DNA from: a virus
Lineage: Duplodnaviria > Heunggongvirae > Uroviricota > Caudoviricetes
IMG/VR virus record: IMGVR_UViG_2939147180_000006
Location: 1 to 54,932 of that record
Reading direction: 5' to 3' (one strand)
DNA: 54,932 nt
Shown here: positions 37,397 to 40,098 of the stretch, piece by piece
How positions within the stretch are numbered: the stretch's first letter is position 1
How the letters are laid out: each line of letters begins with the position of its first letter
Program-made: the position numbers and the translations under genes
The notes under the pieces: model-generated
Database searches by the model: none
The model's input: only the letters and a program-made list of their open reading frames with translations
Told to the model about the DNA's origin: nothing

Positions 37397-37473
37397 AATG
37401 CTCTCTCCTTTTCAGGTGATTTATACGCATTTCAGCGCTGCCGGATTTTTAAAGAGCATTTGTTTGCTTGAAG

Positions 37474-37554: not shown

Positions 37555-38337
37555 TCAGTCAGGCAAAACACGGTTAAGCGTAGTACGATTGATGGCCCTG
37601 TCGTTAGCCAGGAATACAGCACGGGCAAAGCCGCGCGGCGTTAGCGAGCGGATCATCTTTGTTCGTTTCGTCCGGCCTCCAGTTTTAGACCATCCCGGGT
37701 TATCACCAGAGTTAAGATCTACAGGTCTGAAAAGCGGTTGTTTAAATCCGTTACCGCACCAAATACAAGTTTTCTTTGTATACGCGTCGCGCGACGGGTA
37801 AACATCCTGGAAAGCAGGATGCTTGTCATCTTCCGGCAGGTAGCCACCGTAAGCGCAAGGATTAAAGATAAAATCCGGTTTACGCCATAACGTTGACAGT
37901 GCGCCCACCGGATTTTCCACCATCCACGGCACGTTATACATATTTGCCAGTTTTTCTACAATTTTTGCGTTATACGCCGCCTTTACCTGGAAGCCAGGAT
38001 CTTTTTTTCGCTTATCAGCGAACCAGCGAGCGCCAGACACAGCGAGATCGTCGCATGGAGGAAAGCCCAAGATAATGTCAGGCTCTGGATAAACAGACAA
38101 TTCAGGGGAGAACATTACCAGGAAATGGCTGTCAATCCATACGTTAACATATTCAATATTCGGATGAATGATTTTAACGCCTTCATAATCGCCGTGGTTT
38201 GCGCCGTCATAGTTGAAGCAATAGCACTTATATCCAGCATCCGCCCAGTCTTTAACGGCATATCCGCTGCCGTCGTACAGCGACCACACAACCCAGCTTC
38301 TAAGCCAATTATTTAACCAGTGTTTAGCCTTGCTCAT
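37555..38337 (-). CDS. Putative DNA cytosine-C5 methyltransferase (compact, divergent)
   Basis: 260 aa; motif-I-like SLYDGSGYA, motif-IV-like GFPPCDDLAVSG, motif-VI-like WMVENPVG; target-recognition region short. Confidence 0.5.
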   Translation of the reverse strand: MSKAKHWLNNWLRSWVVWSLYDGSGYAVKDWADAGYKCYCFNYDGANHGDYEGVKIIHPNIEYVNVWIDSHFLVMFSPELSVYPEPDIILGFPPCDDLAVSGARWFADKRKKDPGFQVKAAYNAKIVEKLANMYNVPWMVENPVGALSTLWRKPDFIFNPCAYGGYLPEDDKHPAFQDVYPSRDAYTKKTCIWCGNGFKQPLFRPVDLNSGDNPGWSKTGGRTKRTKMIRSLTPRGFARAVFLANDRAINRTTLNRVLPD

Positions 38338-38846
38338 TTTCTGCCCTCAAACGTGAGATAGCGGCGCATGATGATAGTGATCACCGTTACCGCTGCCATT
38401 TTTGAGATGAACTGCATAGCTGATATTTCAGGCATAAACGCCATAAACGATAGCGTGGGGAAAATCAACGCATCGCCAATGGCTGACGCTATATTTGCAG
38501 GCCAGCGTTTCGAATCGAAATCACCAGGCAAAACCCGGTAAACACCGCCAGATATAAGCGCACCAGAAACAACCGCGACGAATGACGCGATTGCCACCAT
38601 CCCTGCGTCATAATTTATCAGCACCGTGATTGCGCCAGCGGCGGCGCATGTTGTAGCCGACCATTTCAGGCCGCCGTCATATAACAGAAAGTCGCGGATC
38701 ATCATATTGACACACACTACTGCTACCGTGGTGATAGGAATTACCCACGGGCCGCAATGGTTAACAATTAGGTTGATGATCACGAAAACGGCGACATAAA
38801 CGCAGGCCAATAACCTGTCAATCGCCACCTTTTTCATTTGGGTCAT
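38334..38846 (-). CDS. Integral membrane protein (about 5 TM; possible Vut/YhhQ-like transporter fold)
   Basis: 170 aa, very hydrophobic; segment PANIASAIGDALIFPTLSFMAF loosely resembles a YhhQ motif; weak. Confidence 0.3.
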   Translation of the reverse strand: MTQMKKVAIDRLLACVYVAVFVIINLIVNHCGPWVIPITTVAVVCVNMMIRDFLLYDGGLKWSATTCAAAGAITVLINYDAGMVAIASFVAVVSGALISGGVYRVLPGDFDSKRWPANIASAIGDALIFPTLSFMAFMPEISAMQFISKMAAVTVITIIMRRYLTFEGRK

Positions 38847-39333
38847 ACCTCTTATCGCGAATAGCCTCAGATCTTTTAAAATTCAAGTCAAGTCGAGTTG
38901 AAAGACAACCGCATTGAGGGTTAATCTCCGAAGGCTCAAAGACATCACGGAATTTTATAACCCCATCCTTTACCATCCCTTCACTAATGTTGGCGGCAGT
39001 GAACTGGTTTTTATTTTGCTCCACCTCCCGATCATTCAGTATCTGCTCCGCTTTTAGTGCGCTGTAGCTGATTAGGTCAACCAAAGTGTCAGTAGGGTCA
39101 GAACCATTAACCAAAATGGCTTCTAAACGCGCCTCCTTGAGGCAAATCATAAGATCCCATACATCAAGTGGGGTTAAATTTGCGCCCTTCTTAGCGTTGT
39201 ATATAGTGGCTATTTTTGGCGCTGATTTTTCTTGTTTTCTGTCGTATCCGTTTTGTTTCCCTCTTTGCTCAATTGTTTCCGCTGCAAGTCGTAATAAATC
39301 TGCTACACTAGTCATTATCTGCACCTCTTGCAT
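38818..39333 (-). CDS. Hypothetical protein (171 aa)
   Basis: Track ORF between the two methyltransferase genes. Confidence 0.4.
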   Translation of the reverse strand: MQEVQIMTSVADLLRLAAETIEQRGKQNGYDRKQEKSAPKIATIYNAKKGANLTPLDVWDLMICLKEARLEAILVNGSDPTDTLVDLISYSALKAEQILNDREVEQNKNQFTAANISEGMVKDGVIKFRDVFEPSEINPQCGCLSTRLDLNFKRSEAIRDKRYDPNEKGGD

Positions 39334-39859
39334 ATAGATCTTTGCGCGTTACGTGTGTAAAAATACATTCATGTCTGCACCGTGGATGCCAGATCAAAAA
39401 CAAGCTGCCTTTATTGTTTCCGCTCACTGGCTTACCAGTCGCAGCATTTATAAAAGCCAGCCGCCCGCGCGTGATTAATCTGCATTCGTTTGCCGTCTCA
39501 ACGCCGTTCATAAACCAGCCAACAGAAATATCAGCGGGCAACAACATTACGCAACCTATATGATTTCGTTTATGTTCTATCGCCGCCTTATCAACGAATG
39601 GCCCCGGATTCGAGTATGGCGGATTCATCCAGACATACTCACCAGGCATTGCCACCGCTCCCCACGGATAATGCAACGTGTCCATTTCTTCTGTTATATA
39701 CCGAGGAACTAGCGCATTTTCCTCGCTTGCCGCCACATCTGCGACAAATTCGAACTCGCGATCCATTCCTCTAAAAACTGGTTTTGGCGTCTGCCACAGG
39801 TCTTTTATTTCCTTCGGCGTGTTGCTGCCTCCAAAATCATTTTTCATCATTACCCCCAC
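39308..39859 (-). CDS. dam: Phage-type DNA N6-adenine methyltransferase (Dam family)
   Basis: 183 aa; catalytic motif WMNPPYS (NPPY); size and context typical of lambdoid phage Dam proteins. Confidence 0.7.
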   Translation of the reverse strand: MGVMMKNDFGGSNTPKEIKDLWQTPKPVFRGMDREFEFVADVAASEENALVPRYITEEMDTLHYPWGAVAMPGEYVWMNPPYSNPGPFVDKAAIEHKRNHIGCVMLLPADISVGWFMNGVETANECRLITRGRLAFINAATGKPVSGNNKGSLFLIWHPRCRHECIFTHVTRKDLYARGADND

Positions 39860-40098
39860 TAAAAATAATCCTGGTCAGTCCCCCATCTATTATTGAGATA
39901 CCCCACCAACCACACAAAACGTTCAATACTGATTAGCGGGGCGACCTTGCGATAATGCTTTTCTAATATCAGCCGCGTAGCTTTATCGCTGTAGCCGTTT
40001 CTTTCTACCTCTGATTTGCAGGCAGAAAGCGCCGCACGCGCGGCAGTTTTTACGGCGTTGAATTGCGGCTCTGACAGGTTAAATAAAGCCATTTTCAT
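39859..40098 (-). CDS. Hypothetical protein (79 aa)
   Basis: Track ORF, co-directional early-left operon. Confidence 0.35.
   Translation of the reverse strand: MKMALFNLSEPQFNAVKTAARAALSACKSEVERNGYSDKATRLILEKHYRKVAPLISIERFVWLVGYLNNRWGTDQDYF

Follow-up and report, generated by a model that had tools for sequence, protein, structure and literature searches.

The window analyzed here, a stretch of 54.9 kb, is the complete genome of an mEp021-like (mEpimmI) temperate coliphage; the mEp phage group is, according to a published description, common in the human gut. A block at 37555–39859 consists of four overlapping minus-strand open reading frames (ORFs), encoding a Dam-family methylase, a protein with a DUF6378 domain, a permease of the VUT/YhhQ type, and a C5-cytosine-methylase-like protein (Table 1). 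Because neighboring ORFs overlap by 26, 29, and 4 nt, the arrangement fits a single transcription unit for the four genes. Downstream of the block lie NinF/NinG/RusA/Q, and the boxA-like element probably belongs to a nutR2 site marking where the block ends; in mEp021, nutR2 has been placed downstream of the cytosine-methyltransferase gene (PMC11893012). The neighboring gene ipe codes for a small protein whose pleiotropic effects are related to the membrane.

Table 1. Coordinates of the four ORFs and of the boxA-like element in the window
Feature	Position	Strand	Remarks
Dam ORF	39308..39859	(-)	183 aa from GTG (longest ORF)
DUF6378 ORF	38818..39333	(-)	171 aa
VUT/YhhQ-type permease ORF	38334..38846	(-)	170 aa
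C5-like methylase ORF	37555..38337	(-)	260 aa
boxA-like GCTCTTTAAAAA	37446..37457	(-)	~100 nt 3' of the C5 stop codon; seen by reading the sequence

The original prediction of two orphan methylases within one operon held up: the four ORFs lie exactly where it had placed them, and both family assignments are supported. For the Dam-family protein, identified at first from an NPPY motif, the match to PF05869 extends over profile positions 1–166 of 169 (182.9 bits against a cut-off of 28.1, E = 5e-54), TIGR01712 is matched at 145.8 bits (cut-off 97.05), the PADLOC orphan-MTase model is matched at 2e-27, and the catalytic NPPY lies at residue 79. These matches clearly class it as an orphan phage N6-adenine methylase of PF05869/TIGR01712. 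Orthologues are 179 aa long, so translation probably begins at the ATG near 39847. The genome contains 254 GATC sites against 260 expected; this lack of depletion is compatible with GATC methylation without proving it. As a hint to its ancestry, the protein shares 55% identity with the Dam domain in a DpdA::Dam fusion that adjoins a Vut gene.

The C5-like protein matches phrog_757, annotated as "DNA methyltransferase," at 1e-87. Motifs I, IV, and VI, which had been recognized from the sequence, were confirmed: DGSG (residue 22), PPC (93), and ENP (141) are, together with RSLTPRG (230), invariant in 62 homologues at G23 and S24, P94 and C95, E141 to P143, and R230 to T233. No Pfam match was obtained at E <= 0.1, and thus no direct match to PF00145, for which precomputed matches exist in three of 120 homologues among the matches listed; a single-sequence search of PDB sequences also gave nothing. 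In a profile alignment, motifs I to IV line up with those of DNMT3B and M.HaeIII. The predicted model (pLDDT 87, pTM 0.86) was compared with the PDB using Foldseek, and all 50 matches listed were DNMT3A/B/C or DNMT1 (E 1e-7 to 1e-5, probability 1.0), the best being DNMT3A/B catalytic domains at E ~1e-7, with TM-scores of only 0.37–0.52. We are confident that the 260-aa protein is predicted to adopt a C5-cytosine-methylase fold. In its motif VIII strand, Y-T-K-K-T-C, residues K188 and T190 are invariant, and the lysines may substitute for the arginines of the QxRxR motif. Residues 196–229, the segment of approximately 34 aa between motifs VIII and IX where a target-recognition domain would lie, are modeled largely as coil with lower confidence (pLDDT 67–82). 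The protein had been thought unusually short, a view that did not survive comparison with its family, in which more than 7,600 homologues were detected with lengths typically of 227–260 aa, approximately the size of the DNMT3 catalytic domain.

The protein encoded between Dam and the permease had been left as a 171-aa unknown. This is no longer wholly so, as it matches the Pfam family DUF6378 (PF19905) over residues 13–96 (35.0 bits, cut-off 27.1, E = 1.7e-8), a family for which we found no functional data in the literature. Translation probably begins at M7 (39315), which would give 165 aa as in homologues. The AlphaFold model places helices at residues 4–22, 32–41, 49–70, and 75–102 (pLDDT 60–82) and a tail with pLDDT below 50, and relatives range from 99 to 176 aa; the protein is thus modeled as a conserved N-terminal four-helix domain of approximately 100 aa with a variable, disordered C-terminal tail. 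Residues R18, D25, E29, S31, K60, R63, D76, D80, Y84, and E90 are kept in distant members. A profile search of the PDB and a Foldseek search of BFVD (E <= 0.001) found no match, and a single-sequence search of PDB sequences gave chance-level matches only. We make no claim of MazG kinship, because comparison with the MazG-like neighbor of Vut in locus L145, which carries "KG..LTPLD," yielded an hhalign probability of 2%. The C-terminal tail was considered as a remnant of dpdA, and the DpdA profile described below gave no match to it. DUF6378 recurs in unrelated phages next to members of these two methylase families and may be an accessory to them; no methylase lies nearby in 18 of 36 DUF6378 loci outside the mEp group.

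The 170-aa membrane protein has five to six hydrophobic segments, and the GenBank record of mEp021 gives six transmembrane segments for its orthologue. It had been described as polytopic, with a C-terminal segment faintly reminiscent of YhhQ/Vut-type transporters, and the profile comparisons bear out that family link. The protein itself gave no match in direct scans of Pfam (including PF02592), NCBIfam, and PADLOC, and its assignment to PF02592 is transitive: 73 of 76 aligned phmmer homologues match this family, strong grounds for the assignment. An alignment of the permease family gave an hhalign probability of 94.3% against Escherichia coli YhhQ (E = 1e-7, 140 columns), and the protein matches phrog_4899 at 9e-46. 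Word-indexed searching returned near-identical relatives only, so an exhaustive HMMER search was needed, which gave 156 representatives. The permease keeps all four invariant and ten of 14 near-invariant residues of the VUT family, including G32, D125, F134, K149, N25, R51, D52, N118, F129, P130, and Q145, and departs from near-invariant residues at I24, A126, S133, and A152. A single-sequence search of PDB sequences gave nothing, and the family profile found chance matches to Tim22 only in the PDB; a YhhQ structure was not found there. On this evidence we identify the protein as a predicted divergent, short VUT/YhhQ (PF02592) permease. By homology, it would import 7-deazapurine (queuosine-precursor) bases, substrate and direction both being putative. 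E. coli YhhQ was reportedly described by Zallot in 2017 as a 7-deazaguanine base transporter. E. coli makes preQ1 itself and has its own YhhQ, which makes it less obvious that a second importer would be of benefit. Deletion of yhhQ from phage CAjan had no visible phenotype (PMC7544227).

The block is conserved: at 86–92% DNA identity it recurs in seven phage isolates as well as in 34 complete E. coli genomes out of 5,426. The permease is 96–99% identical in amino acid sequence across mEp phages and is intact in all 45 relatives examined, whereas the C5 gene is absent from four of the 45 mEp-type loci (the other 41 carry all four genes). An HNH endonuclease takes its place in two of these four loci, the gene is simply missing from one, and in the fourth the contig ends just past the permease. 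Such loss or replacement of the C5 gene while the permease stays speaks against the proposal that the four genes form one module. All four genes are under purifying selection, with dN/dS values of 0.05 for Dam, 0.22 for DUF6378, 0.06 for the permease, and 0.10 for the C5-like gene. In Dhillonvirus and Pappous, the C5-like, Dam, and DUF6378 genes occur together without any permease, and in locus L083 the four-gene order is kept though the Vut protein is only 53% identical. The strong conservation of the permease and the tight gene overlaps could still reflect a hidden functional coupling.

Elsewhere, relatives of the permease are tied to DpdA, a guanine transglycosylase regarded as the signature of 7-deazaguanine DNA modification (PMC10516641). 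In IMG/VR, a phrog_887 ("queuine tRNA-ribosyltransferase") protein lies within 3 kb of the permease in 62 of 79 loci, in 56 of them immediately upstream on the same strand, and the pairing is also found in the isolated phages Opt-719, PEAT2, and AB3P2. An HMM built from 63 Vut-adjacent proteins detects the DpdA of CAjan at 1.9e-15; run at maximum sensitivity on the six-frame translation of the window, it gave no match except an artefact on Dam, caused by the fusion members in the HMM. Neither TGT (PF01702) and DUF6610 nor the preQ0-synthesis genes FolE/QueC/D/E had a Pfam match among the window ORFs scanned (the largest virion genes left out). No split or decayed dpdA was found near Vut in the window, mEp021, MagusPhagus, or loci L083–L088. 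The DpdA screens covered the phrog_887/DpdA1 type together with Pfam TGT/DUF6610, and the divergent families DpdA3 and DpdA4 were overlooked earlier (PMC10516641). From these searches, the phage does not appear to carry a DpdA-based 7-deazaguanine module. The suggestion of a more elaborate DNA-modification module is thus only partly upheld: the wider permease family does adjoin DpdA in roughly 60 of 79 viral loci, but the searches of the present genome revealed neither DpdA or TGT nor any Que gene. DpdA-less Vut sequences group together in a neighbor-joining tree (bootstrap 14/50), and a scan of genome contigs for this clade yielded one further locus only, in a Succinivibrio MAG.

We regard with slightly better than even confidence the explanation that the block is a mosaic, in which anti-restriction methylases stand beside a putative 7-deazapurine importer that has become uncoupled from DNA modification. 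The block would be a delayed-early segment of the N-antiterminated rightward operon, lying just upstream of nutR2 and built of four separable parts. Most likely, Dam and the minimal, DNMT3-sized C5 protein methylate replicating phage DNA, allowing progeny to survive restriction in new hosts, a role that we infer from family membership; the DUF6378 four-helix protein is perhaps accessory to the two methylases. The short permease would, by homology, bring in a 7-deazapurine base, for instance preQ0 or preQ1. Most other phages pair the permease with DpdA, which exchanges the imported base into DNA, and the mEp lineage has retained the permease along with a Dam closely related to DpdA-linked Dams. 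As no DpdA was found in the window, the imported base is not expected in the phage DNA, and our leading guess is that, during infection, it most likely supplies the Tgt/queuosine-tRNA pathway of the host. A boost to host Q-tRNA has been proposed for phages that carry pathway genes yet lack DpdA (PMC6884629). The gene order would then record the mosaic accretion of DNA-modification genes in the nin-like region rather than a single four-protein machine.

Among the alternatives, it is unlikely that the membrane protein is a VUT descendant that no longer transports and instead perturbs the membrane or serves exclusion, for instance to keep out superinfecting phages, time lysis, or take over the host. 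Its shortness (E. coli YhhQ has 221 aa to its 170), its scores below every Pfam threshold, the four departures from near-invariant positions, and the proximity of ipe would all suit such a factor. However, the short form is normal in phages, as in the 159-aa CAjan gp41, every invariant and most near-invariant residues are kept, and the low dN/dS applies to the whole length, as fits a constrained polytopic transporter. The gene also lies in a lytic early operon rather than in a position expressed in the lysogen. Nothing that we found points to superinfection exclusion, and the exclusion module that had been suggested is not supported.

A second alternative, that the four genes constitute one DNA-hypermodification module, we consider very unlikely. 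A 7-deazaguanine precursor would be inserted by an unrecognized transglycosylase, such as DUF6378 or another phage protein, or by a host or prophage DpdA, with the methylases adding further marks. The overwhelming linkage of the permease family to DpdA in other phages is what this reading would predict, as is the relatedness of both Dam and Vut to members of Vut-DpdA-Dam modules, the DpdA::Dam fusion among them; the tight overlaps and the retained order in L083 agree with it, and phages thought to lack DpdA have later been found to have divergent ones (PMC10516641). Against it, HMM and Pfam searches detected no DpdA, TGT, or Que gene in the genome, and DUF6378, modeled as a 100-aa helical bundle rather than a TIM barrel, is widespread without any Vut. 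In addition, some relatives do without the C5 gene. The mEp phages, moreover, are propagated on E. coli K-12, which to our knowledge has no dpdA.

Just as improbable, in our estimation, is that the permease carries another substrate, such as a methyl-cycle metabolite, for use by the two methylases, although this would explain its place between them. In three or four lineages, DpdA-less Vut genes do have DNA methylase genes nearby: in mEp and L083 they lie between Dam and C5, and in L084/L143 two genes from a PF01555 methylase. Their products also cluster in the neighbor-joining tree. That cluster has a bootstrap of only 14/50, however, and Vut is kept in L085, from which the methylase is missing, and in the mEp relatives without C5; in L145–148 its companions are a ligase and a MazG-like protein, and neither Dam nor a C5-like gene lies within 5 kb. 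Moreover, every characterized VUT/COG1738 member that we know of transports 7-deazaguanine bases. Least probable of all is a DpdA-independent route, perhaps via DUF6378 or the Dam- or C5-fold proteins, that would place an imported 7-deazapurine into mEpimmI phage DNA.

All parts of the block belong to known kinds, and if the simple reading is true, the locus is no more than a common type of anti-restriction methylase cluster plus a single leftover transporter. The literature on mEp021 holds no functional data on its methylases and membrane protein beyond annotation. The records examined call the permease gene only "hypothetical" or a "putative membrane protein," and it now gains a concrete, if predicted, identity. 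A phage VUT/YhhQ clade persists under strong selection without its usual partner DpdA, raising the question of whether a temperate coliphage imports queuosine precursors for host tRNA modification or for DNA by another route; either a DpdA-independent DNA route or a re-tuning of host queuosine-tRNA would, if true, be a new viral use of the queuosine-precursor pathway. The recurrence of the C5-like/Dam/DUF6378 neighborhood likewise makes DUF6378 a candidate accessory of methylases.

Each component can be set beside a known counterpart. Dam shares with the phage orphan Dam methylases (PF05869/TIGR01712) a full-length match and the NPPY motif. With the DNMT3A/3B catalytic domains, whose target-recognition regions are minimal, the C5-like protein shares approximately equal size, the predicted Rossmann C5-MTase fold, the catalytic PC, an ENV-type motif, and a motif IX-like RSLTPRG; it differs from the usual C5 methylases in motif IV (PPCD/T-D rather than PCQ) and motif VIII (TKKT rather than QxRxR). 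Its length is typical of phrog_757, a phage family in which we found no characterized member. The permease aligns with E. coli YhhQ (COG1738) through the regions of the RD motif and the D-S/A-x-x-F-P...F motif, but it is phage-encoded, 50 aa shorter, and well below 30% identical. Its closer counterparts in form are the VUT proteins of CAjan (gp41; Seuratvirus), Opt-719, and PEAT2, which are likewise short (~160–180 aa), have five to six transmembrane segments, and are encoded in an early DNA-metabolism region. Those genes are located within dpdA or beside it, in some cases accompanied by folE/queCDE, whereas no DpdA or Que gene was detected in the window; BLASTP finds no pairwise similarity between the permease and the 159-aa "yhhQ" product of CAjan, while its nearest DpdA-linked VUT relatives are 35–39% identical. 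The neighborhood as a whole is most nearly paralleled in lytic, unrelated phages, Dhillonvirus (SSL-2009a orf38, orf34, and orf30) and Pectobacterium phage Pappous, which have another gene order, extra small genes in between, and no VUT permease, but in which the same three families of C5-like, Dam, and DUF6378 proteins are encoded within ~3 kb.

Over most of its length, the 54.9-kb window is 86-92% identical to mEp021, mEp010, mEp554, and related mEpimmI temperate coliphages (a group described in PMC11893012), and it encodes an integrase, a CI-like repressor, ERF, SSB, DnaB, NinB/NinG/RusA, Q, lysis genes, and a full virion module. On the strength of this alignment and gene content, it represents an entire mEpimmI phage or prophage. 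Among 5,426 complete E. coli genomes, 34 carry the 2.6-kb block of interest, which also occurs in at least 45 IMG/VR contigs.

The original prediction placed a membrane protein and a 171-aa protein between two methyltransferases, and the four ORFs, all on the minus strand, match that layout exactly, with successive overlaps of 26, 29, and 4 nt. Around the mEp021 counterpart, ipe lies upstream and a terminator, NinF, NinG, RusA, and Q lie downstream; nutR2 has been placed directly after the cytosine-methyltransferase gene (PMC11893012). A boxA-like sequence in the window is probably this same nutR2 site. Given the mEp021 gene order, the nutR2 position, and the boxA-like sequence, the block makes up the distal portion of the early-right operon, which depends on N. 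Ipe, whose homologue directly precedes Dam, is the "inducer of pleiotropic effects," and its overexpression is reported to give haemolysis via HlyE vesicles. Terminator-like sites in the block region number four, near the chance expectation of 3.1; one lies within the permease ORF, and the GenBank records of mEp554 and mEp515 also annotate an ARNold-predicted terminator within this gene.

Features of the window and of relatives' loci (L-numbers, mostly IMG/VR contigs)
Sequence	Positions	Strand	Feature	Remark
Window	39859-40098	minus	Ipe homologue	92% identity to mEp021 Ipe over 77 aa
Window	39308-39859	minus	Dam	mEp021 gp30, putative N6-adenine MTase
Window	38818-39333	minus	DUF6378 protein, 171 aa	mEp021 gp31, hypothetical protein
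Window	38334-38846	minus	VUT/YhhQ (Vut) permease (predicted), 170 aa	mEp021 gp32, putative membrane protein (6 TM)
Window	38521-38541	minus	Terminator-like hairpin, then T-rich run	
Window	37555-38337	minus	C5-like protein, 260 aa	mEp021 gp33, putative cytosine MTase
Window	37446-37457	minus	boxA-like GCTCTTTAAAAA	~100 nt downstream of C5 stop codon
L003	5435-6844		DpdA-like::Dam fusion, 469-aa ORF	IMG/VR UViG_3300011586_000014
L084	6001-8258		Vut, two unannotated proteins, methylase	
L143	4965-7225		Vut, two unannotated proteins, methylase	
L101	5510-6037		HNH_3 endonuclease, 175 aa	
L104	5510-6037		HNH_3 endonuclease, 175 aa	
L145	3679-6189		DNA ligase, Vut, pyrophosphohydrolase	
L198	4404-5501		Dam and DUF6378 in one frame	IMG/VR UViG_3300045988_003101, Dhillonvirus-like

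Direct library scans of the membrane protein gave no match. An exhaustive HMMER search from it yielded 156 cluster representatives, and Pfam PF02592 (Vut_1) matched 73 of the 76 that were aligned; the family alignment matched E. coli YhhQ in hhalign at 94% probability (E = 1e-7, 140 columns). The window protein has five to six hydrophobic segments; of the positions conserved in the family, it keeps the four invariant ones and 10 of the 14 that are near-invariant. GenBank names its relatives in other phages "VUT family protein" or "putative vitamin uptake transporter." What had been a tentative YhhQ/Vut resemblance thus holds at the profile level, and we assign the protein as a VUT/YhhQ permease. 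It is of the same short form as the 159-aa "yhhQ" of Escherichia phage CAjan. All four genes of the block are under purifying selection, and the permease shows conservation rather than decay: all 45 mEp-type IMG/VR loci carry it intact, its median dN/dS is 0.06, and the protein is 96-99% identical across mEp phages, whereas the block DNA is only ~87-91% identical.

Elsewhere, short Vut genes keep characteristic company. A conserved protein of ~245 aa lies within 3 kb in 62 of 79 IMG/VR loci, in 56 of them immediately upstream on the same strand. Its identity as phrog_887 ("queuine tRNA-ribosyltransferase"), and the detection of CAjan DpdA by an HMM derived from it, mark it as a DpdA-type guanine transglycosylase. 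DpdA counts as the signature enzyme of 7-deazaguanine DNA modification (PMC10516641), for which YhhQ is regarded as an optional precursor importer (PMC6884629, PMC7544227). Directly downstream of Vut in locus L003, a DpdA-like transglycosylase (phrog_887) and a PF05869 Dam domain are joined in one ORF, which suggests that deazaguanine insertion and adenine methylation are coupled in some phages.

No DpdA was detected in the six-frame translated window with the DpdA HMM at maximum sensitivity; the lone match, on Dam, is an artefact of DpdA::Dam fusion members in the HMM. The window ORFs that were scanned, a set without the largest virion genes, contained no TGT, DUF6610, FolE, QueC, QueD, or QueE Pfam family, and PHROG scans of the larger unannotated proteins revealed no transglycosylase. 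Nor were DpdA or Que genes detected in the ~3-12 kb of surrounding sequence retrieved for mEp021, MagusPhagus, and the more distant relatives L083-L088.

The nearest DpdA-linked Vut genes (L003, L026, and L028; 37-39% identity) occupy nin-like regions in the order Vut, DpdA, Dam, with NinB between DpdA and Dam in the latter two. The window Dam shares 55% identity with the Dam domain of the L003 fusion and is equally close to the Dam of L083. In a neighbor-joining tree, DpdA-less Vut sequences group together beside these DpdA-linked ones (bootstrap only 14/50). Together these observations fit, and do not prove, descent of the block's Vut from a Vut-DpdA-Dam module that later lost dpdA.

Assignment of Dam (NPPY at residue 79; dN/dS 0.05) to the phage N6-adenine methylase family is unambiguous from its profile matches: PF05869 at 5e-54, TIGR01712 at 146 bits, and a PADLOC orphan-MTase model. 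The C5-like protein has no direct Pfam match and matches phrog_757 at 1e-87. It had been thought unusually short, but its family of >7,600 detected homologues, labelled DNA cytosine methyltransferase by some sources, is typically 227-260 aa; it is compact yet ordinary for this large phage family, of which we found no characterised member. The SAM-loop G-S, catalytic P-C, E-N-P, and R-S-L-T-x-R do not vary across 62 homologues, and ~34 residues separate motif VIII from motif IX. A PDB search with the family profile gave weak matches, exclusively to C5-MTases and aligned over motifs I to IV. The AlphaFold model, which is confident (pLDDT 87, pTM 0.86), matched DNMT3A/B/C or DNMT1 catalytic domains in all 50 Foldseek matches listed (E ~1e-7, probability 1.0, TM 0.37-0.52).

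The 171-aa protein matches PF19905 (DUF6378) and has the highest dN/dS of the four genes (0.22). Its model is a four-helix bundle (residues 1-102, moderate confidence) followed by a disordered tail of variable length, with relatives spanning 99 to 176 aa. Fold and profile searches returned nothing beyond generic helical bundles. Distant members keep R18, D25, E29, S31, K60, R63, D76, D80, and E90, a charged-residue set that suggests a binding or active site. In L198, Dam and DUF6378 share a reading frame without an intervening stop codon because two small genes that lie between them in other Dhillonviruses are absent; this single case could be a fusion protein. DUF6378 also forms the C-terminal domain of 227-268-aa proteins in Salmonella phage 9NA (gp29, L096), Klebsiella phage Carvaje (L152), and Pectobacterium phage Pappous (L149), and its gene divergently adjoins dUTPase in 9NA and Carvaje. 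The label "phosphofructokinase" on this gene in the Pappous and Stenotrophomonas phage Paxi records, and in PHROGs, looks like a propagated misannotation.

Evidence that the four genes form one machine is mixed. In favor, they overlap, all four are kept in 41 of 45 mEp-type loci, and L083, with a Vut 53% identical, keeps the order Dam, DUF6378, Vut, C5, then NinG. Against this, an HNH_3 endonuclease gene replaces C5 directly after the permease in L101 and L104, C5 is absent in L118, and a fourth contig stops right after the permease, which is kept in all four; C5-like, Dam, and DUF6378 occur together without Vut in Dhillonviruses and Pappous, and no methylase lies near half of the DUF6378 loci outside the mEp group. 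The closest DpdA-less Vut relatives also occupy other gene contexts. In L084, L143, and L098 (a Succinivibrio MAG), a Vut with 46% identity to the window protein precedes two unannotated proteins of 136-144 aa that look alike, then a PF01555 N6/N4 methylase; L085 lacks the methylase. In L145-L148 (117-140-kb contigs), a Vut 34-36% identical to the window protein has an ATP-dependent DNA ligase on one side and a 245-aa MazG/PRA-PH-like pyrophosphohydrolase on the other, with no DpdA within 5 kb. Most simply read, two associations overlap here: methylases grouped with DUF6378 and, in the mEp/L083 lineage, a Vut gene that was inserted among them. The earlier suggestion of a more elaborate DNA-modification module is thus supported in part, by the DpdA neighbors of Vut elsewhere, and weakened by the lack of a detected DpdA or Que gene here.

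Phage orphan methylases are established as protecting phage DNA from restriction, and the two methylases probably shield this phage likewise. The BASEL study found that methylase genes and restriction resistance are not simply correlated. Several six-base palindromes are strongly avoided across the whole window (observed versus expected: GGCGCC, 0 versus 21.8; TCCGGA, 0 versus 18.5; CCGCGG, 0 versus 13.9; AAGCTT, 0 versus 13.1; GAATTC, 2 versus 13.4). GATC (254 versus 260) and CCWGG (70 versus 69) are not, which is compatible with Dam/Dcm-type protection of both sites and does not reveal the methylase specificities.

The permease would bring in preQ0/preQ1-type bases. With no DpdA, these would stay out of phage DNA and would more probably supply host Tgt-dependent queuosine synthesis; DpdA-independent DNA modification in this phage is unlikely. 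Queuosine feeding is the weakest step. E. coli makes its own preQ1 and has its own YhhQ, and the CAjan yhhQ deletion did not visibly affect DNA modification (PMC7544227). Such feeding of the host has already been proposed for DpdA-less phages with pathway genes (PMC6884629).

All components of the block belong to known kinds, and the mEp021 annotation already covers it except for the identity of the membrane protein. New here are the assignment of that protein to the VUT/YhhQ permeases, the existence in phages of a conserved clade of such permeases without DpdA, and the recurrence of DUF6378 beside Dam and C5-like methylase families in unrelated phages.
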